Of a stretch of DNA of 64,000 bases, positions 43,544 through 60,765 are shown piece after piece. The notes beneath the pieces are model-generated. The model saw only the letters and a program-made list of their open reading frames with translations, had not been told where the DNA came from and did no database searches. Origin of the DNA: Candidatus Sulfobium sp. (GTDB taxonomy: Bacteria > Nitrospirota > Thermodesulfovibrionia > Thermodesulfovibrionales > UBA6898); the NCBI GenBank assembly GCA_037380845.1, contig JARRRI010000015.1, positions 1-64,000 of the forward strand, given 5' to 3'. The position numbers and the translations under genes are program-made. How positions within the stretch are numbered: position 1 is the stretch's first letter; every line of letters begins with the position of its first letter.

Positions 43544-43609
43544 CTTAACCGCCTTTTAACGTTTCCGTAACATTGCCTTAACTCCCCCGTAATACGCCGC
43601 ACGTATCAT
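43544..43609 (+). promoter_or_regulatory. Pho-box-like array (5 direct repeats, 11-bp period) plus -10
   Basis: CTTAAC/TTTAAC/CGTAAC/CTTAAC/CGTAAT at 43544/55/66/77/88; TATCAT 10 nt after the last repeat. Confidence 0.75.
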
Positions 43610-43660: not shown

Positions 43661-44914
43661 ATGGAGAAAGGGATTTCATTCAGCAGAATGGGCGTGATCG
43701 TTCTTATCGTGCTCATGCAGTTGGTGTTCGCCGGGATTTTTGCAGCGTCTGCCCGCGCAAGTGATGTGGATGTTTTAATCGACAAGCTGGTCGAAAAAGG
43801 GGTCCTCACCCGCAGCGATGCGGAGGCGATCCTCAAGGAGACGAAGGAGGCGGAGAGAAAGGAACAGCCGAAGGCAGAACAGATGGCAAAGGCGGAAAAG
43901 GCAGCAGCGCCCTCATGGACAGACAACATCAAGTTCTTCGGCGACTTCAGGCTACGTAACCAGTGGGAGCACCGCGAAGGCAAAGATGCTCGTGACAGGG
44001 GACGGTTCAGGTGGAGATTCGGGGCCGAAGCAAAGGTAGTCGACAACCTGCAGGTCGGCTTCCGGCTTGCCAGCGGCGGCGACGATCCGCGTTCGACAAA
44101 CCAGACTTTTGAAGACATCTTTTCGAGCAAGAGCATGAGGATTGACCGGGCCTACGCCAGGTATGAGCCCGTCGGATGGCTTACTCTCACGGGCGGCAAA
44201 TTCGCAAATCCGATATGGACGACGGCAGACCTGCTCTGGGACGACGACATCAACCCCGAGGGTCTCGCTGCTCATGTGTATATGAAAGGCGAACCGGTCG
44301 ACGTTTTCTTCAACACGGGACTGTTTGTCATGAATCAGTTTAAAAACAGTTCCGAGCCCCTCATGTTCCCTCTTCAGCTCGGCGTAAACTGGAAGGTTGC
44401 AGAAAATACTGACCTGAAGTTAGCGGGCTCCTACTATTACTTCAGCGGCCTCCAGGGAGAGACTTTGGATTTTTCAGCTAAGACCAACACGCTTGTCCCG
44501 GGAGACGGTCTGAAATACAAGTATAACGCCTTCACGGCCGAAACCGAATTGGGTTTGAGGGATGTGATATTTCCTTATGTGGGACTGTTCGGAACTTACG
44601 TCTACAATCCCGATCCCTCCGACAATAACCAGGGCTTCCTCGCAGGTGTGAAGTTCGGCGACAAAAAGGTTTCGAAGGGAGGCGACTGGCAGGTGAAATA
44701 TATGTACCGTTATCTCGAAACAGACGCCTGGCCGGATGTCTTCCCGGATTCCGATTTCTTCGGGGGCGCAACAAACGTTAAAGGTCATGAGGCGGTGGCC
44801 TCCTACGGCCTGATGAAACATGTCACACTCGGTCTCGATTATTATCACAGCAGCCAAATTCATGGTACGACCGACGAGGACCTCTTCCAGACGGACCTCG
44901 TTTTCAAGTTCTAA
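43661..44914 (+). CDS. Putative porin (probably phosphate-starvation induced)
   Basis: Signal peptide, LIDKLVEKGVLT, GDFRLR, STNQT, WDDDINPEG, C-terminal Phe. Confidence 0.85.
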   Translation: MEKGISFSRMGVIVLIVLMQLVFAGIFAASARASDVDVLIDKLVEKGVLTRSDAEAILKETKEAERKEQPKAEQMAKAEKAAAPSWTDNIKFFGDFRLRNQWEHREGKDARDRGRFRWRFGAEAKVVDNLQVGFRLASGGDDPRSTNQTFEDIFSSKSMRIDRAYARYEPVGWLTLTGGKFANPIWTTADLLWDDDINPEGLAAHVYMKGEPVDVFFNTGLFVMNQFKNSSEPLMFPLQLGVNWKVAENTDLKLAGSYYYFSGLQGETLDFSAKTNTLVPGDGLKYKYNAFTAETELGLRDVIFPYVGLFGTYVYNPDPSDNNQGFLAGVKFGDKKVSKGGDWQVKYMYRYLETDAWPDVFPDSDFFGGATNVKGHEAVASYGLMKHVTLGLDYYHSSQIHGTTDEDLFQTDLVFKF

Positions 44915-45111: not shown

Positions 45112-45167
45112 TTTAATTCAAATGTAATATTCCTCTAACAGGCCCGTAATAAACCCGGTGTTATAGT
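45112..45167 (+). promoter_or_regulatory. Pho-box-like array (4 repeats) plus extended -10
   Basis: TTTAAT/TGTAAT/TCTAAC/CGTAAT at 45112/23/34/45; TGnTATAGT. Confidence 0.75.
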
Positions 45168-45310
45168 GATATAAACAGCTATGAAACCGTCTTTTTAATT
45201 TCGGTCAATTTGACTTTATCAGAGGAGGTGAGGCCACGGGATAAGAATATCGTTGGTATGTCGACTGCGGGGACGCGTGCCCTGCAACACATTTATTGAA
45301 AGGAGAAAAC

Positions 45311-46321
45311 ATGAAGAAAGTTATCACACTGATGGCAGTTTTACTTACAGCGCTTTACTTTTCGCCGGCAGGAGCCGCCGACATGCTCAACGGAGCGGGC
45401 GCTACATTCCCCTATCCGGTTTATTCGGCGTGGGCGTATGCTTACAACAAGGACACCGGGGTGAAGCTGAACTACCAGTCAATAGGATCGGGCGGCGGCA
45501 TAAGGCAGATCACTGAGAGGACGGTGGACTTCGGCGCGTCCGATGCACCCCTCACCCCCGCACAGCTGAAGAAGGACAGGCTCTATCAGTTTCCCGCGGT
45601 CATGGGTGGCGTTGTCCCGGTAGTCAATATCCCGGGGGTAAAGGCGGGGAAGATGAAACTTGATTCAGCCGCCGTCTGCAAGATATACCTTGGTGAATTG
45701 AAATACTGGGACACCCCGGAAATCTCGCGATTAAACCCGGGAATGAAGTTGCCGCATCATGAAATAACCGTTGTCCACAGGTCTGACGGCTCGGGAACAA
45801 CCGCCATATTCACCCACTATCTCAGCGGGGCATGCCCTGCCTGGAAAGAGAAAGTGGGCGCCGGAACTTCCGTGAGCTGGCCCACCGGCATCGGAGGCAA
45901 AGGCAACGAAGGTGTGGCGAACTATACGAGAAGGGCGCCGGATTCCATCGGTTATGTAGAGTTTGCATATGCAGTACAAAACAAACTTGCGTATGTCCTT
46001 CTGAAAAACCCGGCAGGCAATTTCGTTGCCCCCAGCTTCGCCACCTTCGAAAACGCAGCCGCCACGGCGAATTTCGATCCCGGACAGAATTTTCATCTCT
46101 GGCTTGTCAACGCACCGGGAAAAGACGCATGGCCCATTGCAGGGGCAACCTTCATCCTCCTTGCGAAAGAGAAAAAGGATTCCAACCTCAGGACGGTAAA
46201 GTTCTTTGACTGGGCATTCAAACAGGGCGATGCGAAGGCAAAGGAACTGATTTATGTCCCCCTCCCGGAATCTTTAAAGGACAAGATCAGGACTTACTGG
46301 AAAACAAACGGCATAATATAA
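45311..46321 (+). CDS. pstS: Phosphate ABC transporter substrate-binding protein
   Basis: GAGATFP, YQSIGSGGG, DFGASD, RSDGSGTT, GGKGNEGV. Confidence 0.96.
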   Translation: MKKVITLMAVLLTALYFSPAGAADMLNGAGATFPYPVYSAWAYAYNKDTGVKLNYQSIGSGGGIRQITERTVDFGASDAPLTPAQLKKDRLYQFPAVMGGVVPVVNIPGVKAGKMKLDSAAVCKIYLGELKYWDTPEISRLNPGMKLPHHEITVVHRSDGSGTTAIFTHYLSGACPAWKEKVGAGTSVSWPTGIGGKGNEGVANYTRRAPDSIGYVEFAYAVQNKLAYVLLKNPAGNFVAPSFATFENAAATANFDPGQNFHLWLVNAPGKDAWPIAGATFILLAKEKKDSNLRTVKFFDWAFKQGDAKAKELIYVPLPESLKDKIRTYWKTNGII

Positions 46322-47104: not shown

Positions 47105-48088
47105 TCAGACCTTTCTCAGAAGGAAGGCGTGTGCAGAAAGTCCGGCGCCGAAGGCGACCATGATGCAGAAATTCCCCTTTTCCACCCCGCTTGCCAGAAT
47201 ATTGTCGAACACGAACCAGATTATCTTTTCTCCGCCGGTATGAAGCGCCCAGTGCCTTATATTTTCCACGGTGAGCGATCTCGGTTGAAGAAGGTCTCTT
47301 ACTACCTGTGCAACCGCTTTCTTTACCAGGTGAGGGAGTTTTGTAGAAAGCTGGTTATATAGCTGGCCGTTCCTGTGGACATACCGTATGGCGTCCCGGT
47401 CCTCGGGGACATAGCAACTTGAGGATGCGATGAGCTCAAGACCTTCCGGACGGTCCCAGAGCACCGCAGCCGCAGCCCCGTCGCCAAAGAGAGCATTCGA
47501 GACAAGCAGGCTCAGATCATCCCCCATCTGAAATGTGGCGGTACATATCTCTACAGAAACGCTCACTACTGCTTTGCCCCCCGCTCCCCTTGCAAGCGCC
47601 CCTGCTACTTCCAGGTTGGGGATCGCGCCACCGCAACCGCTGCCCACGAGATCATACACCCTGATATTGCGGGCGAACCCCAGTTTTTCGATAAGGTACG
47701 TCGATATGCCGGGACAGATGTAGCCTGTGCAGGTATTGACCACGAGTCCTGAAATGTCTTCGGTCGACAGCCCCGCCCTGCTCAGGGCCTTCTGTACGGC
47801 CTCGGCCGAGAGATCGACGGCCCAGCGCGCGAAACGCCAGATACGGGCGTCGGGGTCCTCGCTCAGGAAATCCTGCGGGTCTTCGATGGCGAAGTACCTT
47901 TTACGGATGGCGGGGTGCGTCAGCAGGCTGTGCATCAGCGAGCGACTCCTGGAACTCAGCCTGTCCGAATACCGGTCCAGGAGATGCTTCTCCACCTCTG
48001 CCTGGTCGGCGGAAAAAGATGGCGTCGCGACCGCGACGGATGCAATATAAACTTTTCCCGCCGTTTTTTCTTCTTCATCCATGATCAT
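47105..48088 (-). pseudogene. Type III polyketide synthase with in-frame deletion removing the catalytic Asn region
   Basis: GSGCGG (Cys), LFGDGAAA, HTGG (His) joined directly to WFV; no GNMSS motif; 327 aa. Confidence 0.7.
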
Positions 48089-49509
48089 ACCTCCATGCCT
48101 AATAACCTGAGTCCCCGCCTTATGGCACTGGTATGTCTCCAGAGAGGGGATCGCACCCCCATCATATATGCCAGCCGATGAATAGCCGGGAGAAGTCGCA
48201 TACCCAGTGACTCAGAATTCATAAAATTCATGTGTTCGTTCATTGAATTCTTTACCTGCTTCAGCATCCAGCCATAATCAACGGTGGGGGAGATGTAAAA
48301 AACGGGTTCAAGCATCTCGGCGGGTGTGAGCGAGAGAAGCCCCTGTTTTCTCGCTATTAAGTCGAGTTCCGTCCCGGGATAGGTTCGTATGCCCATCCCG
48401 AAAAAAGCCGCGTCCTTCGGACGGATAACAGTTTCGGCAAACCGGAGGGTTTCCCTTACCGTCCCCCTGGTCTCATTCGGCCCCCCCATCATGAATATCC
48501 AGACACAGGGGAGATCGTGGCGCCCGACCACCTGCGCCGCTTTATACACATGTTCGGCTGAGAACCCCTTCCCCAGTCCCTCAAGGACGGCGTCAGAAGC
48601 ACTTTCCACGGTAATGCCGATACCCGAAAAACCCGCTCTTTCCATTGACGAGATAAGGTCGTCATCGATAAAGAGGGGGTTCAATTCGAGGCTCTGCAGA
48701 GACGCCTGTGAGCGGGTCCGTATCAGTTCGTGACAAATAGCGAGCGCATGACTATAGGGAGCGTTGAAAACGTTGTCCACAAGCTCAATATTGCGGAATC
48801 CCTTCGATACCAGTCTGCCTATGTTGGCGGCAACCTCTTCAGGGTCGCCCAGGCGGTAACTGCCTCCCTCAATCTTCCGGTACGTACAGTACACGCACGA
48901 AAACTGACATCCAAGTTTTGTCTGAACGGGCCCTGTCGATAGTCTCCTGAGATATGCCGTGACATCGATGTATCGATGAAAATCGGGTAAATCACAGGAG
49001 CAACGGTCCTGCCGTGATCTAAAGTGATTGGAATAAAACGTCTCCTCCTCCAACCACGCTACCCCCTCAAGCGTCTTCGGACATCCATCAGCCAGTTCCC
49101 CGAGAAACTGAGGAAATACGGTCTCCCCGTCACCCAGCACGGCCCATTCGGCGCCGGTAAAACGGAGCAATTCCTCCGGCATTACGGAGACGGCGGCGCC
49201 GCCCAACACCAGAGGGGCAGAGGTTAAATCCCGTGCGGCGCCGATGAGAGGGGGAAGTTCCCTTATGAAGAATTCCGGGTAACTGCAGTCGTTATTATCG
49301 ATGTTCCTTATTGAAAGCCCGACAACGTCCGGCTTCTCCTTTTCAAGTTCGCGCCTGACCGCAACCACGGGGTCGTCCTCAAACATCACGTCCACAAGCC
49401 GGGCCCTGTGTCCGGCCCTCGCCGCGGCTTCCGCCACCATGCATGCCCCAAGGGGAATAACCGGCATAGGGAATTGATTGCGGTTGGTGCTTATAATGAG
49501 AACGTTCAT
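48085..49509 (-). CDS. B12-binding radical SAM protein
   Basis: PVIPLG, GLSIRNIDN, CQFSCVYC, VDNVFN; ATGA-coupled to the PKS. Confidence 0.9.
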   Translation of the reverse strand: MNVLIISTNRNQFPMPVIPLGACMVAEAAARAGHRARLVDVMFEDDPVVAVRRELEKEKPDVVGLSIRNIDNNDCSYPEFFIRELPPLIGAARDLTSAPLVLGGAAVSVMPEELLRFTGAEWAVLGDGETVFPQFLGELADGCPKTLEGVAWLEEETFYSNHFRSRQDRCSCDLPDFHRYIDVTAYLRRLSTGPVQTKLGCQFSCVYCTYRKIEGGSYRLGDPEEVAANIGRLVSKGFRNIELVDNVFNAPYSHALAICHELIRTRSQASLQSLELNPLFIDDDLISSMERAGFSGIGITVESASDAVLEGLGKGFSAEHVYKAAQVVGRHDLPCVWIFMMGGPNETRGTVRETLRFAETVIRPKDAAFFGMGIRTYPGTELDLIARKQGLLSLTPAEMLEPVFYISPTVDYGWMLKQVKNSMNEHMNFMNSESLGMRLLPAIHRLAYMMGVRSPLWRHTSAIRRGLRLLGMEV

Positions 49510-54235: not shown

Positions 54236-55174
54236 TCACAGCTGGTCATACGCCGCGGTCCGGTTTTTTCTGCGTGCCAGTTCGCTGGCGTAGCGCTTTC
54301 CCAGGGTCAGAGCATGCTCCCCGGCCCATTCGGTCAGTTTTGTTTTCCCTGCGGGAGGGGAATCCGTACAGAGGAGTCCCGCCATCAGGCCTTCGATCTC
54401 GTCATGTGTCAGCGTTATATCATTCAGTACCCTGCCGACTGCCACCCCGATAAAATAGCCGAGATCCCTGGGGATAGGGACAACGGGTCTCCGGTGTCCG
54501 ATAATCCTCCCGATCTCTTCGACCAACTCCCTGTAAGAGAACGTCTCCGGACCTATGGCATCGATAATCCTGTTTTCCATATTTTGCCCTTCCTTCACGG
54601 CCAACTCTGCCAGGTCATCTACGTAGATCGGCTGGAGCCGGTATCTTCCGTCACCGAAGACCCCGAAGACCGGAAAGTGCCGCAGAAACCAGGCGATATT
54701 GTTGATCAGGATATCTTCCCTGCCAAAAAGGACCGCCGGTCTCAGGATGGAATAATGGAGTCCCGATTCCTTCAATGCGCGTTCGAGCTTCGCCTTGCCT
54801 CTGTAATATTCGAACGGCGACTCCTCGGAGGGGTTGGCTATGCTTACGTGGACAATCTTTCCGACACCCGCTACCCGGGCGGCACTGAACAATGTCAGCG
54901 TATTTTCGATCGCCCGGGAATATGAGAAACCCGGATAATTGAACCTTACCCAATAGTTATTGTAGAGGACCGCCGCCCCCTCCAGTGAATCAGCAAGCTT
55001 ATCAGGATGGTCAAAATTGTACGGATATGCCTCCACCCTGCCTTGAAAGGGATTGCTGCGATGAGGAGAGTTTGTTATCGTGCGCACCCTACGGCCGGCA
55101 TCCAGCAGGCGCTTCGCGATGTATTTTCCGGAAAATCCGAAGGCGCCCGTTACGACATGAAGATCATCTCCCAT
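54236..55174 (-). CDS. NAD(P)-dependent epimerase/SDR (NDUFA9-like)
   Basis: VTGAFGFSG, YYRGK, LRPAVLFG, QPIYVDD. Confidence 0.88.
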   Translation of the reverse strand: MGDDLHVVTGAFGFSGKYIAKRLLDAGRRVRTITNSPHRSNPFQGRVEAYPYNFDHPDKLADSLEGAAVLYNNYWVRFNYPGFSYSRAIENTLTLFSAARVAGVGKIVHVSIANPSEESPFEYYRGKAKLERALKESGLHYSILRPAVLFGREDILINNIAWFLRHFPVFGVFGDGRYRLQPIYVDDLAELAVKEGQNMENRIIDAIGPETFSYRELVEEIGRIIGHRRPVVPIPRDLGYFIGVAVGRVLNDITLTHDEIEGLMAGLLCTDSPPAGKTKLTEWAGEHALTLGKRYASELARRKNRTAAYDQL

Positions 55175-55429
55175 AGTTTCTCCCTTCTTCCACTCTCACC
55201 GCCCCCCTCCAGGTCTCTTAAATTCCTCCTTCTCTCCTTTTCCGGTAAACAAAAGGCCGAACCTGCCATGGATAATCCCAGGCAGCTCGGCCATCTTCCC
55301 CTTACTAAGATCCGCCGCTTTCCGTCCCCTTCTCACGGAGGGTTGGGCTTTTTCGGGACACCTGTCTTAATTACGTCTATCACACAATGTGCCGCCTGTC
55401 AATCGTCATGCAGGCGGCAATTGACACAC

Positions 55430-55468
55430 GTTACATTAATGTTAAACTTCAGTTAAACGTCAGTTAAA
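55430..55468 (-). promoter_or_regulatory. Pho-box-like array (4 repeats) in reverse orientation upstream of phoB
   Basis: Plus-strand GTTACA/GTTAAA x3 at 55430/41/52/63 (TTTAAC x3 and TGTAAC on minus). Confidence 0.7.
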
Positions 55469-55518
55469 TCGCCCAAAGTCTGTTGCGGCGGAGTGGGCGC
55501 AAATGTTATATCTTAATC

Positions 55519-56235
55519 ATGATGAGTAAAAAGATCCTCGTCGTCGACGATGAGGCTGACATTGTAGAACTCTGCTCTTACAACCTCCGGAAGGAGGGGT
55601 ATGACGTAGCATCTGCACCGGACGGCGAAGCGGCCCTTGGAAAAATCAGGGAAGATAATTTCGACCTGGTCCTCCTAGACTTAATGCTCCCCGGCCTGCA
55701 GGGCGTAGAACTCTGCAGGATCATCAGAAACGATCCGGCGACCGCTTCTCTGCCGATCATAATGCTTACCGCAAAAACCGAGGAACTCGACAAGGTCCTC
55801 GGCCTTGAGATGGGAGCGGACGACTACGTCACCAAACCATTCAGTCCCAGGGAACTCCTGGCCCGCGTGAGGGCCGTCCTGAGAAGATCGGGGGCAAAAG
55901 CGGAGAGGGCGGCGCCGAAAGAAAAAGAAACGGTAATAAGGCTTGGTGCTCTTGTCATCGATCTCTCCGCTTACACCGTAATAAAAGACGGCAAACCGTT
56001 GGACCTCAGTTCTACCGAGTTCCGCCTCCTGTCACATCTGGTCGAAAACAAAGGTAAGGTATACAACCGTGAGCAGCTTCTCAATACGGTATGGAAGGAC
56101 GGGGGCTATGTCGAGCCCAGGACGGTTGACGTCCATATCAGGCGGCTGCGCACGCAGATCGAAGATGACCCGGCAAATCCTCTTTACATAAAAACAAAAA
56201 GAGGAATCGGATATTATGCCAATGCGGATGTTTAA
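55519..56235 (+). CDS. phoB: OmpR-family response regulator, PhoB/PhoP-like
   Basis: LLDLMLPG, IIMLTAK, GADDYVTKPFSPREL, wHTH RTVDVHIRRLR; Pho boxes and pstS nearby. Confidence 0.8.
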   Translation: MMSKKILVVDDEADIVELCSYNLRKEGYDVASAPDGEAALGKIREDNFDLVLLDLMLPGLQGVELCRIIRNDPATASLPIIMLTAKTEELDKVLGLEMGADDYVTKPFSPRELLARVRAVLRRSGAKAERAAPKEKETVIRLGALVIDLSAYTVIKDGKPLDLSSTEFRLLSHLVENKGKVYNREQLLNTVWKDGGYVEPRTVDVHIRRLRTQIEDDPANPLYIKTKRGIGYYANADV

Positions 56236-56270
56236 CCGCCCGGAGCCCCTCTTACCCCTCTGCTGATTCA

Positions 56271-57515
56271 ATGAATCCGTCGACACGGGTCTTCTTATGG
56301 GGTGTTGCCACATCTGCATTTCAGCTTGAAGGCTCTCCTCATGCCGACTGGACGTCATGGGATGCCGCATTAAGCCGGAAGCCCGACGTCACGGACCATT
56401 ATAAACTGTACAGACAGGACCTGGTACTGCTGAGAGACCTGGGGGTAAACTCCTATCGCTTCTCTGTTGAATGGAGCAGGTTGCAGCCCCGCGAAGATAG
56501 CTGGGACGAAAATGCCATCCGGCATTACCAGGACGTTGTGACGATCCTCCGGAGCTATAACATAGAGCCGATGGTCACCCTTCATCACTTCACCCACCCG
56601 CTCTGGTTCATAAAAAAATATCCCTGGCATGAAGATGCCTCCGTAAAAAAATTTCTCGAATATGTCGGAAAGATCGTTGCCGGACTGAAAGGGGTAAAGT
56701 TCTGGATAACCTTCAATGAACCGTATGTCCTTGTGCTGGGCGGATATTTCGAAGGCTGCACTCCTCCCGCAATCAAAAATGTCCCCCTGGGAATCAGGGC
56801 GCTTACGAATATACTGCGCGCCCATGCCTCTGCCTACGATATTATTCATTCCGTCAACCCGGATGCCCAGGTGAGTGTTGCTCACAACATGGCAGCGCTG
56901 GCACCGTGGAGAAAATGGAATCCCCTGGACAAGCTTTTGGCCCGGCTGGCAAAGTCTTTCTACAATCATTCCATGCTCGACGCTTTTCTCAGCGGTACTC
57001 TTAGCCTCAAATTTCCCTTCAGGGAAGAGCAGAGCATAGCCCTGCCCATAAAGGGGAAGCTCGATTTTTTTGGAGTCAATTATTACACGAGGATCCACAT
57101 GCGGTTCAATCCTTTCAGGAAGATGGCTGTAGAGATGAGGCATCGGGACATCGACGGATACGGGCTCACCGACCTCGGATGGGAGGTACATCCCAAGGGA
57201 CTCGAAAAGGTTCTCCGACACGCCTCCCGACTCAACATACCCCTCATCGTAACCGAAAACGGAATAGCTACCCGGGACGGCCAGAAAAAGATTTCATTCA
57301 TGAAAAGACATATTGATGTTATCGAGCGGTGCATCCGGGAAGGCATGGACATAAGGGGCTATTTTTACTGGTCTCTGATCGATAACTACGAGTGGCTCCA
57401 GGGGCTTGACTCCCATTTCGGACTCTACAGGGTAGATTTCGACACTCTCCAACGCACCCCCACAAATGCCGCGTCATATTATTCCTACATCATAAAAAGC
57501 CGGAATTTCTACTGA
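56271..57515 (+). CDS. Glycoside hydrolase family 1 (beta-glucosidase)
   Basis: FLWGVATSAFQLEG, TFNEP, IVTENG, WSLIDNYEW. Confidence 0.93.
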   Translation: MNPSTRVFLWGVATSAFQLEGSPHADWTSWDAALSRKPDVTDHYKLYRQDLVLLRDLGVNSYRFSVEWSRLQPREDSWDENAIRHYQDVVTILRSYNIEPMVTLHHFTHPLWFIKKYPWHEDASVKKFLEYVGKIVAGLKGVKFWITFNEPYVLVLGGYFEGCTPPAIKNVPLGIRALTNILRAHASAYDIIHSVNPDAQVSVAHNMAALAPWRKWNPLDKLLARLAKSFYNHSMLDAFLSGTLSLKFPFREEQSIALPIKGKLDFFGVNYYTRIHMRFNPFRKMAVEMRHRDIDGYGLTDLGWEVHPKGLEKVLRHASRLNIPLIVTENGIATRDGQKKISFMKRHIDVIERCIREGMDIRGYFYWSLIDNYEWLQGLDSHFGLYRVDFDTLQRTPTNAASYYSYIIKSRNFY

Positions 57516-57594
57516 TCCAAACAACTGATTTTGCTCCGGGATAGCCCGGCATGCATAAAAAGCCAATATATGGCGGTAAGGGCACATCCCCAAA

Positions 57595-57649
57595 TTTAAC
57601 CTCAATTTAACAGCGGTTTCATAATCCTGCAACGGAAGAACATTACTAT
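57595..57649 (+). promoter_or_regulatory. Pho-box-like array (4 repeats) plus -10
   Basis: TTTAAC/TTTAAC/TTTCAT/TGCAAC at 57595/606/617/628; TACTAT 10 nt later. Confidence 0.72.
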
Positions 57650-57689
57650 AAATAGAGCATGAAAAAACAGTTCCCTGCACAGACTGGCA

Positions 57690-58382
57690 ATGCTTCTGTG
57701 TGACTTTCACATTCACACAACATACTCTGACGGCTCGGTAGAGCTGAGAAGAACCATCGATATTTTCGGACAGGCCGGCTTCGATGTAATCGCTATTACC
57801 GACCACGTTGTCAACGGCGACAATTCGCTGGGAAAACTCGCTCACCGCTTCAAATATTCAGTCACCTCAAACAACTTTTACGGGTATATCGACCACATAA
57901 ACAGAGAGGCCAGGCGGGCCCGGGAAAAATACGGCATGCTGGTCATTCCGGGCGTTGAAATTAGCAAGAACCATCTAACGCCGGACAGGTCGGCCCACCT
58001 CCTGGTCATCGACATCCGGGATTTCATTCCCGCCTGCTGGAGTTATGAAGAGATCTTCCTGGAGGTGAAAAAACAGCGGGCCCTGACGGTCGCCTGCCAC
58101 CCGCATCATATGACCCTCAAGACCGACAGGGACACCCTCTTCCTCTGGAACAACCGGGACAAGTACGCCCGCTACATCGACGCATGGGAGATAGCCAACA
58201 GGGACGACATGTTCAACGTCGTAGGGCTGAAAAAATATCCTTACATCGCAAACAGCGACTTCCACAAACCAAGACACCTTTATTCATGGAAAACTCTTCT
58301 GAACTGCGAGAAGGACACAGAGGCGATAAAGGAATGCATCAAACACAACAAGGGCGTGGCGATGACGCTCTTCAGGAATTAG
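57690..58382 (+). CDS. PHP-domain phosphoesterase
   Basis: DFHIHTTYSDG, ITDH, PGVE, CHPH, NSDFH. Confidence 0.9.
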   Translation: MLLCDFHIHTTYSDGSVELRRTIDIFGQAGFDVIAITDHVVNGDNSLGKLAHRFKYSVTSNNFYGYIDHINREARRAREKYGMLVIPGVEISKNHLTPDRSAHLLVIDIRDFIPACWSYEEIFLEVKKQRALTVACHPHHMTLKTDRDTLFLWNNRDKYARYIDAWEIANRDDMFNVVGLKKYPYIANSDFHKPRHLYSWKTLLNCEKDTEAIKECIKHNKGVAMTLFRN

Positions 58383-58391
58383 GAGGTGAGC

Positions 58392-59606
58392 ATGACCTTT
58401 TTTTGGATATGCGCCGTCATTGCACTTATTGGACTGGTCGGTTATCTGTTCCAGTCGCTATCAGTGCGGTTCTATACTGCGCCGCGTCTCACGGAGGAAG
58501 AAGGCCGTTACCGGAGTCTTCCGCCCGTCTCGATTCTCAAGCCTCTGAAGGGACTCGATGACGGTCTGTTCGACAACCTCGAAAGCTTCTGCAATCTCGA
58601 TTATCCCGCGTATGAGATCATCTTTGCGCTGCAGAACAGGAACGACCCGGCGGGCAGGGTGGCTGAAAGGATAAAAGAGAAATATCCCTCAAAAGACATA
58701 TCGGTCGTTGTCGAATTCTGTGACGATGGTTTGAATCCGAAAGTAAACAACCTCATACCAGCTTATAAAAGGGCGAAATACGACCTCCTGCTCATCAGTG
58801 ACAGCAATGTCCGCGTCGAGAAAGACTATCTGGCGGCCGTCGCCGGCCATATGACGGATCCCTCTGTTGGGCTTGTCAGCAATATGATCAAGGGGGTAAA
58901 CGGACGCTCGCTCGGCGCCGTTCTGGAAAATCTCCACCTGAATTCCTTCATCGTCGGAAGTGTCTGCTTCCTGGACAAATATCTGGGGCTGCCCTGCGTT
59001 ATCGGAAAATCCATGCTGATGAAGAGGAGCGACCTCGAAGCCATAGGGGGTTTTGCAGCTGTCAAGGACCTTCTGGCGGAAGATTACATCATAGGGCAAC
59101 GCATCCATAAACTCGGCAAGAAGGTCGTCCTGTCGAATCACATTGTCGGGAATGTCAATGAATACTGGGAATTCAGAAAGTTTTTCAACAGACATACCCG
59201 CTGGGGCAAACTGAGATGGCACATCGGAGGGATAAAGTACTTCCTAGAGCTGATCGGCAATGCGGTCTTCATTTCCTGCCTGCCCCTTGTTTTTTCTCCG
59301 CTAAGAGTGTCGCTGCCCCTTGCCGCACTGGTAAGTTCGTTGAAGATAATCTGTGACTACTATATCGGGAGGAAACTCGGAGCGCGCATGAACCCCTTAC
59401 TGTATCTCCTTGCACCGGTTAAGGATATCTTCATAGGCTGCATATGGTTCGTTCCTGTTTTCAGCAACAGGGTCGTCTGGAGAGACAACACATATCTGAT
59501 CGGCAAAGACTCTCAGCTGTTTCCATGTCCTGCCGCCGGCAAGCGGCACTGGAGACCTGCAATTATAGCGGCCATCAGGTCGAAGCTCGCATTATCCAGG
59601 TCATGA
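58392..59606 (+). CDS. GT21/ceramide-glucosyltransferase-like (HpnI-like) glycosyltransferase
   Basis: N-terminal TM, PPVSILKPLKG, NPKVNNL, ISDS, LAED, RHTRW, WR near C-terminus. Confidence 0.88.
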   Translation: MTFFWICAVIALIGLVGYLFQSLSVRFYTAPRLTEEEGRYRSLPPVSILKPLKGLDDGLFDNLESFCNLDYPAYEIIFALQNRNDPAGRVAERIKEKYPSKDISVVVEFCDDGLNPKVNNLIPAYKRAKYDLLLISDSNVRVEKDYLAAVAGHMTDPSVGLVSNMIKGVNGRSLGAVLENLHLNSFIVGSVCFLDKYLGLPCVIGKSMLMKRSDLEAIGGFAAVKDLLAEDYIIGQRIHKLGKKVVLSNHIVGNVNEYWEFRKFFNRHTRWGKLRWHIGGIKYFLELIGNAVFISCLPLVFSPLRVSLPLAALVSSLKIICDYYIGRKLGARMNPLLYLLAPVKDIFIGCIWFVPVFSNRVVWRDNTYLIGKDSQLFPCPAAGKRHWRPAIIAAIRSKLALSRS

Positions 59607-59620
59607 GAAAGGAGGCTTAC

Positions 59621-59858
59621 ATGTCGTCAGCACCTGTGCATTTTTCACAAATAAGCACCACAGACGCCGAACATGACTGCCCATTCGGAAACGTGGAATC
59701 CGGCATCTGTTCCCGGAAACGTGGAATCCGGCATCTGTTCCGCATCGTTGTCTTCCATGGTTATCGGGCCGCACCGCAGGCGGTCTTACTGCAGCAGTGA
59801 CAATTACGACAACTGTCCTGTTTTTCTTGCAAAGATGCTGCGGAAGAAAGATTGGTAA
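59621..59858 (+). pseudogene. Cys-rich microprotein A (CX9CX17CX7C), frameshifted by a 28-bp duplication
   Basis: AAGGAGG RBS; removing one repeat copy restores a 69-aa ORF. Confidence 0.75.
59686..59741. repeat. Perfect 28-bp tandem duplication
   Basis: CGGAAACGTGGAATCCGGCATCTGTTCC x2 (59686-59713, 59714-59741). Confidence 0.95.
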
Positions 59859-59981
59859 ACCTGGACTGTAAAACTCAAGCAGGACTATAGGAAGAGATGC
59901 CGACTAATGACTCGAATGCCGCAGCCGAAATCAGGAGTTCACGTACCGTCCATAAAAAACATCAAGCGTCAGGAGGAAGAC

Positions 59982-60200
59982 ATGAAATGCATGTATCTTG
60001 TCAAGAGGACGAACCTGTCCTGCAGGGCCCTGGAAAGACCTTACGCCCCCAGCCTGTTTCAGCTTACCGAATACTGCAGGAGCACTGCCTACAGGAAGTG
60101 TCCGTTTTATCTTCAGGGCATCATAAGCGCTAACCAAAGAGAAGACAGTGTTGGGCAGCGCCGCCGGAAGAAATGCTCCATGACTTCATTTTGCCGGTAG
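59982..60200 (+). CDS. Cys-rich microprotein B (CX10CX17CX7C)
   Basis: AGGAGG RBS; MKCMYLVKRTNLSC...YCRSTAYRKCPFY. Confidence 0.75.
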   Translation: MKCMYLVKRTNLSCRALERPYAPSLFQLTEYCRSTAYRKCPFYLQGIISANQREDSVGQRRRKKCSMTSFCR

Positions 60201-60208
60201 CTGAGAAG

Positions 60209-60263
60209 GTGAACGAAGATTTCATGTTGCTGAAATAATCCTGTAACTTCTCTTCATTAAAAT
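60209..60263 (+). promoter_or_regulatory. Pho-box-like array plus -10 upstream of microproteins C/D
   Basis: GTGAAC/TTTCAT/TGAAAT/TGTAAC at 60209/20/31/42; TAAAAT 10 nt later; shares ATAATCCTG(C/T)AAC-N7-CATTA with the PHP promoter. Confidence 0.6.
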
Positions 60264-60292
60264 ATATACAGTTCAAAAAAAGGAGGAGTCCA

Positions 60293-60484
60293 ATGAAATG
60301 TCCGGCATGCGGCAGAACAATGTTGGAGACTGGAAGATTCGCCGAGTGTCCCAACATCCTGTGTGATTACCAGGAAGAAATCGAAGGCAGGGAACCAGTC
60401 CTTACGGCAAGGCGTGACTTGCCGCAGATCGTCTTCATCAACAGTCCGAACTACCCTATTCCTGAGAAGCAAAGGACGATATGA
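60293..60484 (+). CDS. Zinc-ribbon-like microprotein C
   Basis: AAGGAGGAG RBS; MKCPACG...ECPNILC. Confidence 0.75.
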   Translation: MKCPACGRTMLETGRFAECPNILCDYQEEIEGREPVLTARRDLPQIVFINSPNYPIPEKQRTI

Positions 60485-60765
60485 CGATTACAATGATAAA
60501 AGAAAGAAGACAGCTTGTCGAGTGCCCTTACTGCAACGCCGAAACCGATGTGTGCTTGGCGTCCCTGAGATCCGTCAAATTGAAGAAGCTGGTAAGGCTT
60601 CACCGCTGCAATGATAACAGCTATTACAGATGCGCGCTTTTCCTGGCCAAAAGGACCGGCCTGACATGCCGGCCGGCTTCCTCTTACACTGAGAACCTTC
60701 AGCCTAGGACCACTTCTTTCCCAGGGATTCCAGACCTGCCCGCCCGAGATCTTCGGGACTCATGA
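60481..60765 (+). CDS. Cys-rich microprotein D (CX9CX17CX7C)
   Basis: ATGA coupling to C; CPYCNAETDVCLASL...CNDNSYYRCALFLAK. Confidence 0.75.
   Translation: MTITMIKERRQLVECPYCNAETDVCLASLRSVKLKKLVRLHRCNDNSYYRCALFLAKRTGLTCRPASSYTENLQPRTTSFPGIPDLPARDLRDS

Follow-up and report, generated by a model that had tools for sequence, protein, structure and literature searches.

What do four neighbouring genes at 55.4-59.6 kb of a Candidatus Sulfobium contig, joining a PhoB-like regulator to enzymes that act on sugars and phosphoesters, do together? The window considered here is the whole stretch of 64,000 nucleotides that was analysed (contig C15 of the genome), and the genome, of a sulfate-reducer-like member of Nitrospirota, comprises 3.18 Mb in 104 contigs with 53% G+C, estimated 100% complete with 1.82% contamination. 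Relatives of the window proteins are labelled Thermodesulfovibrionales, Nitrospirota or Dissulfurispiraceae by the sources. All four genes lie on the same strand; they encode an OmpR/PhoB-type response regulator, a GH1 beta-glycosidase, a PHP-family metal-dependent phosphoesterase (PHP below) and a GT21 glycosyltransferase. A major way for microbes to cope with scarce phosphate is to exchange phospholipids for lipids without phosphorus, and most of what is known of the genetics of this remodelling comes from Proteobacteria (PlcP, Agt, Pgt, OlsB/OlsF). Our reading of the locus, to which we give a probability of roughly 0.55 on the strength of sequence comparisons, is a Pho-regulon operon for a phosphorus-free glycolipid made under phosphate limitation: PHP and GT21 would probably swap phospholipids for sugar lipids when phosphate runs short.

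The regulator is encoded by the open reading frame (ORF) 55483-56235 (+, likely start 55519) and matches PF00072 at 110 bits and PF00486 at 95.6 bits. After a gap of 35 nt comes the gene of the GH1 enzyme (56271-57515, +; 414 residues; PF00232, 271 bits). Following a spacer of 174 nt, the PHP gene (57690-58382, +) encodes a soluble protein of 230 residues (PF02811, 30.7 bits against a cut-off of 26.4), and the GT21 gene (58386-59606, +) an integral-membrane protein of 406 residues (PF13506, 166.4 bits against a cut-off of 21.7). GT21 starts 3 nt past the PHP stop and, as judged from this spacing, is translationally coupled to PHP. The GH1 protein has no signal peptide, no transmembrane or hydrophobic segment and no N-terminal extension. 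The observation of the initial annotation, which described a cytoplasmic GH1 right behind phoB, holds, and all four genes are found at the coordinates given for them.

Pho boxes of the PhoB/PhoP type are direct repeats with a spacing of about 11 bp, placed directly 5' of the -10 element, where they replace the -35. An array of this kind precedes the PHP gene at 57595-57638 (+). Its four units, TTTAAC/TTTAAC/TTTCAT/TGCAAC, follow the repeat unit [CT][TG]TAA[CT] with 11-bp spacing and end 52 nt before the PHP start; a TATAAA-like -10 lies at about 57644-57652, 6-10 nt past the array, so that array and -10 together have the layout by which a PhoB-activated promoter is usually defined. For reference we used two other promoters of the window, with five units at 43544-43598 (+) before a Porin_5 porin gene (43661-44914) and four units at 45112-45155 (+) before a PstS-like binding-protein gene (45296-46321), which is a second PstS besides that of the pstSCAB-phoU operon on contig C4. 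A weight matrix trained on the nine units of these two promoters only was run, for three consecutive units and on both strands, over the whole genome. The PHP promoter ranked 7th of all genome positions and 5th among the non-training sites. Other top matches were an array 3' of the PHP-GT21 operon at 60220-60263 (+), the regulator promoter (C15:55468, -) and C4:113796, and the pstSCAB-phoU promoter (C4:113785-113828), 27-38 nt before the PstS gene that heads pstC-pstA-pstB-phoU, was recovered in this way without training on the pst operon. With a matrix restricted to the six core positions of each unit, a score of at least 15 was obtained at 31 of 6,350,986 genome positions, corresponding to 22 sites: the two training sites, the four sites of the pst operon, regulator, PHP and 60220, and 16 elsewhere. 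The pattern GTTAAAYN4GTTAAAY was found 4 times in the window with at most one mismatch (0.04 expected), and its exact form occurs 3 times in the 3.18-Mb genome, each time at the regulator or PHP promoter. By these scans the Pho box that had been noticed ahead of PHP and GT21 is real and lies far beyond chance. A consensus scan for sigma-70 promoters and terminators over 55100-60400 gave the same counts as shuffled sequences and was uninformative.

Of 9 PhoB-like matches in the genome, that of the regulator is the strongest, and the runner-up scores 220.8; the regulator reaches 269.5 bits with the PhoB model TIGR02154, below the cut-off of 296.2, and 272.9 with YycF. We regard it as the candidate PhoB of the genome. 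Its promoter holds four 11-bp-spaced units at 55425-55473 (-; core score 24.4), reading TTTAAC on the minus strand and GTTAAAC/GTTAAAT on the plus strand, that is, inverted relative to the regulator gene. Arrays are present in the regulator promoters of 10 of 20 loci, forward in 6 and inverted in 4, the inverted ones being those of the window and of its three closest relatives (L012, L014, L015). No kinase gene adjoins the regulator in the window; at locus L027 its orthologue has a sCache-HisKA kinase next to it and pstSCAB-phoU in the same locus.

To assess conservation, a GT21 alignment was run against a single genome for each species, which yielded 80 loci, all labelled as Nitrospirota lineages, and metagenome contigs were scanned with a 10-sequence alignment. 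Of the 80 genome loci, 79 have PHP directly 5' of GT21, and the remaining one begins inside GT21. Among the 71 metagenome loci with room for it, GT21 follows PHP by at most 400 nt in 68. A GH1 gene is found within 6 kb upstream in 63/80 genome loci (the copy of L066 is downstream, on the opposite strand) and upstream in 34/43 metagenome loci, and a regulator at least 55% identical is present upstream in 19 scorable genome loci. Even the most divergent group keeps the order GH1-PHP-GT21, with identities of 58-60% for PHP, 49-51% for GT21 and 46-62% for GH1. The co-occurrence of the three genes, which the initial annotation offered as a check, is conserved in most related loci. Across loci PHP is more conserved (58-89% identity) than GT21 (49-83%), which indicates a strong constraint and does not discriminate between substrates.

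The promoter is conserved as well. Of the 77 loci in which 250 nt or more precede PHP, searched for a three-unit array on the gene strand, 76 have one at -51 to -143, with a score of at least 15 that beats at least 199 of 200 shuffles; the sole miss is L085. As a control, a score of 15 was attained in 5 of 58 GH1 upstream regions. The motif is also present in three of four PstS promoters of relatives (24.1 in L027, 24.2 in L023 and 23.9 in L158; L058, at 1.4, lacks it). The gene context is of the same kind, with phoR-like kinases and pst operons among the neighbours in related loci: L027 carries, in this order, the regulator, the sCache-HisKA kinase, a second regulator, GH1, PHP, GT21, PstS, PstC, PstA, PstB and PhoU. 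The first two ORFs past GT21 were surveyed in 68 loci (131 ORFs), and include PstS in 6 loci, PIN-PhoH in 4, PhoX, PsiE and a phosphate porin in 1 each, DedA/VTT in 5 and a low-molecular-weight phosphatase or ArsC-like protein in 7. In eight loci (L048, L069, L073, L079, L087-L090) PHP-GT21 is directly followed by a fused gene for a protein of about 615-643 residues with an acyltransferase and a GNAT Acetyltransf_5 domain, an architecture that we take to be OlsF-like; one further locus has the two as a split pair and another the GNAT part alone. Three of the OlsF-like genes are followed by a gene for an LPG_synthase_TM protein, and L033 has a patatin-like lipase gene placed between those of GH1 and PHP. 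OlsF is described, in the accessible part of PMC5193443, as an ornithine-lipid synthase of phosphate limitation. Such Pho and OlsF-like neighbours place the operon within a phosphate-starvation island, which in many relatives would hold another phosphorus-free lipid pathway; a search of the window genome with one OlsF-like query found no homologue. The module and its control by phosphate starvation, as first proposed, gain support from the conserved Pho box and from synteny with the Pho regulon.

For the PHP protein, PF02811 is the only Pfam match, with none to a metallophosphoesterase (PF00149-type) fold; there is no hydrophobic segment, and a CehA/McbA metallohydrolase domain is matched weakly (49 bits against a cut-off of 80). 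All nine metal ligands are kept (H7, H9, D14, H39, E90, H103, H137, D190, H192) and each is either invariant or conserved to at least 90% across 36 aligned homologues of 30-89% identity. A profile of the family aligns over its full length with PDB entry 2ANU, Thermotoga maritima TM0559, at E 4.6e-90. The AlphaFold model (pLDDT 94.4, pTM 0.92) was compared with solved structures by Foldseek: 2ANU gave a TM-score of 0.89-0.92 at 43-44% identity, and the next neighbour, BVU_3505, 0.72. By profile and by model, PHP is a member of the uncharacterised TM0559 subfamily. The PDB entry calls TM0559 a 'hypothetical protein', and its structural-genomics label is 'predicted metal-dependent phosphoesterase (PHP family)'. 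A search of the open-access literature brought up no functional study of it, and an ESM Atlas look-up returned unnamed PHP clusters only. Open-access papers likewise yielded no PHP enzyme linked to diacylglycerol or glycolipid synthesis, subscription literature lying outside the search; within what was searched, this type of phosphoesterase has no earlier link to lipids.

A link to lipids comes from its relatives. An exhaustive search of 1.84 billion representatives gave 967 PHP matches at E<=1e-3. Among the matches listed, the best outside the clade share 43-48% identity over the whole PHP protein and are proteins of about 640-676 residues in which the PHP domain is C-terminal. Twenty-two proteins, picked from 150 listed as long or top matches, were domain-scanned, and 8 of them contain MGDG_synth and/or GT28_C/GT1 domains according to Pfam. 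The N-terminal 370 residues had 'diglucosyl diacylglycerol synthase' NF010135 as best NCBIfam model, matched along its length, in 5/5 scanned fusions, at 27-156 bits under a cut-off of 500, and P0254, which has no Pfam glycosyltransferase match, aligns end to end with P0253, which has one. The sources name the fusions processive 1,2-diacylglycerol beta-glucosyltransferase or MurG-like transferase, and the named ones are in Verrucomicrobiota. The N-terminal parts are of the UgtP/YpfP and MGDG-synthase (GT28) type, with scores far below the equivalog cut-offs, and the fusions suggest the same two-step logic within one polypeptide. The window differs in that PHP is paired with GT21, a membrane-embedded enzyme of GT-A fold with a gene of its own. 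One other relative, P0273, carries a PHP domain of the TM0559-type subfamily fused to a receiver and a histidine kinase.

The physical association of the two proteins was modelled too. The GT21-PHP complex scored 0.63, whereas three controls reached 0.00 at most; of 157 solved complexes 116 attain a score of 0.63, and of 215 mismatched pairs 2 do so. At least 97% of contacts are common to the model runs, with a partner pLDDT of at least 84, and the modelled interface involves GT21 residues 56-63 and 88-99 and PHP residues 21-30 and 81-82. As a prediction, the model supports binding of GT21 to PHP. We know of no comparable solved complex. The initial annotation had suggested that a PHP-fold enzyme may take the place of PlcP: this role is favoured by the fusions to diacylglycerol glycosyltransferases and by the complex model. 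From the fusions, the synteny and the complex model we infer a hydrolase that would turn phospholipid into diacylglycerol. A wider proposal, which we hold tentatively and at somewhat less than even odds, is that TM0559-type PHP proteins form a new class of lipid phosphoesterase (phosphatidate phosphatase or phospholipase C) complexed with lipid glycosyltransferases, here in a three-enzyme Pho system with a lipid-directed GH1.

GH1 enzymes carry an acid/base glutamate in NEP and a nucleophile in ENG. Both motifs are present in the GH1 of the window (TFNEP, TENG), which is the sole PF00232 match of the genome and does not reach the cut-off of the equivalog TIGR03356 (287 against 478.5). Its best solved relative is 1VFF, with which the two motifs align (E 5.9e-88 over residues 6-412 of 414). 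This archaeal enzyme, BGPh of Pyrococcus horikoshii, has a similarly short length (423 residues). The portion of PMC4687101 available to us describes it as membrane-associated, with a preference for long-alkyl glucosides and a hydrophobic mound near the active site. The presence of GH1 in the conserved triad argues for action on the GT21 product, and its position behind a Pho-box-bearing regulator gene suggests that it is probably made together with the synthase and not after phosphate returns. In the initial annotation GH1 would reverse the GT21 reaction in a reversible cycle. Trimming or transglycosylation of the head group fits at least as well and, on this analysis, is favoured over simple reversal. 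Transglycosylation of galactolipids is known for the plant GH1 enzyme SFR2.

Taken together, these elements would work as follows. At low phosphate the PhoB-like regulator would bind the 11-bp-spaced repeats and activate PHP-GT21, as well as its own gene and the GH1 gene that follows. PHP, a soluble protein, would dock from the cytoplasmic side on GT21 in the membrane, as modelled, and remove phosphate or a phospho-head group from phosphatidate or a phospholipid, a step that would free phosphorus and leave diacylglycerol or an ether analogue. GT21 would then move a hexose from a uridine diphosphate (UDP) sugar to this lipid and give a beta-glycosyl lipid, as expected at the family level. In what is the weakest step, GH1 might act on the head group of the same glycolipid by trimming, transglycosylation or turnover.

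GT21 proteins are recognised by conserved acidic residues and a (R/Q)xxRW motif. In 32 sequences, D139, D233 and R269-H270-x-R272-W273 are invariant; in the window protein, hydrophobic segments are found once at the N-terminus and two to three times at the C-terminus (transmembrane segments at 1-29, 285-319 and 338-359), so that the PF13506 match, the motif residues and the membrane segments all place the protein in the family. Its best NCBIfam model is HpnI, TIGR03472, of the same Pfam family, and the initial annotation would have been overturned by an HpnI orthologue expressed independently of phosphate. The match is of 262.2 bits against a cut-off of 310. Squalene-hopene cyclase (TIGR01507) gave no match at E<=1e-5 in the window genome, which excludes HpnI, and GT21 stands behind a conserved Pho box in a Pho-regulon context; score, lack of the cyclase and context all separate it from HpnI, and a phosphate-independent hopanoid enzyme can be practically discounted.

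A ceramide module deserves more attention, in which GT21 would be a ceramide glucosyltransferase, PHP would cleave the head group of a phosphosphingolipid and GH1 would be a glucosylceramidase. The sources name GT21 relatives ceramide glucosyltransferase, and the genome holds a serine-palmitoyltransferase-like (Spt-like) gene at C9:51375-52601, with NF047600 as best family at 590 bits under a cut-off of 640, which overlaps an NAD-epimerase-like reductase gene, the two spanning C9:51375-53426 (L107:8376-10426); they may belong to a pathway for sphingolipids or related aminolipids. A ketoacyl synthase gene lies divergent to the pair. In the accessible sections of PMC10667739, monoglycosyl ceramides correlate with Thermodesulfovibrionia sequence variants and sphingolipid genetic potential is cited for Thermodesulfovibrio, but the same sections tie monoglycosyl diether glycerolipids to the group, likewise by correlation. 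Co-occurrence was counted in 151 sampled genomes of the phylum, Spt-like genes being called at E<=1e-140: GT21 is present in 46, an Spt-like gene in 60 and both in 37. Nine of the 46 GT21 carriers thus lack an Spt-like gene, including a single-contig genome estimated 98% complete, and family f15 shows no coupling (Spt-like in 14/22 GT21-positive and 7/11 GT21-negative genomes). In genus g6 of this sample, 8 of 10 genomes are positive, which makes it a candidate group of carriers. Ceramide as an obligatory acceptor is therefore unsupported. The PHP subfamily is, moreover, fused to glycosyltransferases of the diacylglycerol type. We consider the ceramide module quite unlikely, and a glycerolipid, ester or ether, the more likely acceptor on these genomic grounds.

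The main rival for PHP keeps the glycosyltransferase and changes the substrate: PHP would hydrolyse UDP to uridine monophosphate and phosphate, or another soluble phosphoester beside the glycosyltransferase, relieving product inhibition and salvaging phosphate, with the acceptor lipid coming from elsewhere. This would explain equally well why PHP is fused to, or docks on, two unrelated glycosyltransferase folds, and among the structural neighbours of PHP are nucleotide phosphoesterases, RNase AM and a PHP enzyme with bound adenosine monophosphate and phosphate; weak NCBIfam matches to nucleoside bisphosphate phosphatase and RNase RNM point the same way, as does a separate metallophosphoesterase that adjoins GT21 in four relatives. 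Yet the NCBIfam similarities do not extend beyond residues 2-40, the metal motif at the N-terminus, the TM-scores to nucleotide enzymes are only 0.5-0.57, and a search of the window genome with one relative's query found no Metallophos_2 homologue, which would leave the acceptor without an evident source. We judge this explanation unlikely. Still more improbable, in our view, is a non-lipid beta-glucoside or envelope glycan made under phosphate stress, for instance a phosphorus-free polymer replacing a phosphate-rich one, with GT21 as processive synthase and GH1 as trimmer. The D, D, D, (R/Q)xxRW signature of GT21 is common to processive GT2 polysaccharide synthases, the protein also matches PF13641, PF13632 and, weakly, PgaC and NodC models, and the usual substrates of GH1 enzymes are soluble glucosides. 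Against this stand the fusions of PHP relatives to diacylglycerol glycosyltransferases, the OlsF-like aminolipid synthases that adjoin the operon in 10 relatives and the preference of the best GH1 relative for lipid-like aglycones. Characterised GT21 members, as far as we are aware and in the accessible part of PMC8231724, all glycosylate lipids.

Several points weigh against the glycolipid operon. The whole case is built on sequence. The related loci are kin and not independent samples, so their counts show conservation and not independent events. The regulator is under the PhoB equivalog cut-off and its own Pho box is inverted. Some weaker matrix sites precede non-phosphate genes (threonyl-tRNA synthetase, DUF3300), which means that the matrix at a score of 15 is not fully specific; other low-scoring sites precede genes without a Pfam family. 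Beyond TM0559 and BVU_3505, the nearest characterised neighbours of PHP act on nucleotides (RNase AM, pAp phosphatase; TM-scores of about 0.5-0.57), hence a lipid substrate is not suggested by the fold. The metallophosphoesterase adjoining GT21 in four relatives is calcineurin-like (Metallophos_2); it could be the true PlcP-like enzyme there, with PHP doing another job. Finally, the single PHP-GT21 fusion, P0291, has both domains incomplete and is known from one contig only; it may be an artefact.

How does a glycolipid operon of this kind compare with known systems? In the PlcP-Agt and PlcP-Pgt systems of Alphaproteobacteria and SAR11, as here, a cytoplasmic metal-dependent phosphoesterase and a lipid glycosyltransferase form an operon-like pair; induction by phosphate limitation has been shown there and is predicted here. 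PlcP yields diacylglycerol, which the transferase glycosylates, and rhizobial Pgt is a GT21 enzyme (PMC8231724, in its accessible part). PHP has a TIM-barrel-like, trinuclear fold and not a calcineurin-like one, and would work like PlcP without being a member of its family. The partner here is GT21 and not the GT4 enzyme Agt, GH1 is a conserved third member, and the host is an anaerobic lineage of Nitrospirota. The response of Desulfovibrio alaskensis to phosphate limitation was considered as a precedent and set aside: the sections of PMC5193443 accessible to us describe an Agt (GT4) homologue and OlsF, and in them no PHP or GT21.

Other features of the surroundings were recorded. Behind the array at 60220-60263 lie two overlapping small Cys-rich ORFs, 60293-60484 (63 residues, CxxC...C) and 60481-60765 (94 residues), ahead of which there are also a strong ribosome-binding site and a sequence resembling a -10. 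Neither matches a Pfam family; they may be unannotated members of the Pho regulon. A Cys-x7-Cys-(P/A)-x-(F/Y)-L-like motif recurs near the C-terminus of three small ORFs (59673-59858, 59907-60200, 60481-60765); the 97-residue ORF has tblastn relatives in 20 of the 80 related loci, and several ORFs of about 100-110 residues 3' of GT21 in relatives weakly match PF03811 Zn_ribbon_InsA. A perfect 28-bp tandem duplication (2.0 copies) is found at 59686-59741, just 3' of GT21. The PstS-like gene is adjoined by a B12-binding radical-SAM gene and a type III polyketide synthase/FAE1-like condensing-enzyme gene (47105-49509, -), which may form a lipid-modifying pair. The divergent NAD-epimerase-like gene at 54236-55174 had tblastn matches in 0 of 80 related loci and is not a conserved neighbour. 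In the Pho islands of relatives an ORF of about 640 residues without a Pfam family recurs (L016:2928-4853, L023:2800-4719, L033:10205-12130). The L016 copy, 641 residues between GH1 and PHP, was considered as a GT28-PHP fusion and rejected, since it shares with PHP only a short N-terminal HxH-type motif; this motif is of the DFHNHT type seen in PHP or metallohydrolases, and the ORF may encode another phosphoesterase. In two metagenome loci, L154 and L158, PHP is followed by receiver-domain genes and not by GT21, with PstS next in L158. The stretch is contained in DNA sequencing runs that carry marsh or salt-marsh metagenome labels, and no RNA run is listed for it.

Compared with the PlcP-Agt/Pgt logic, what appears to be new at this locus is an unrelated phosphoesterase fold from an uncharacterised subfamily, an added GH1 and a new lineage. 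The conserved Pho box defines a Pho-regulon motif for this poorly cultured group. If the reading is true, a structural-genomics orphan solved in 2005, TM0559, would receive a function, and a non-homologous phosphoesterase would join the lipid-remodelling toolkit. On the wider and more tentative proposal, it would act as a separate partner subunit of GT21 in Nitrospirota and as a domain fused to UgtP-like enzymes in Verrucomicrobiota; the three-enzyme system would then determine how much glycolipid the membranes of these anaerobes contain and how long its head groups are, and could be the genetic source of glycosyl diacyl and diether lipids seen in phosphate-poor anoxic settings. If the main reading is right, PHP-GT21 and GH1 would serve as gene markers of glycolipid production by sulfate-reducing Nitrospirota and by Verrucomicrobiota, for lipid biomarkers of wetlands, aquifers and serpentinising systems that are now assigned to such organisms only by correlation.

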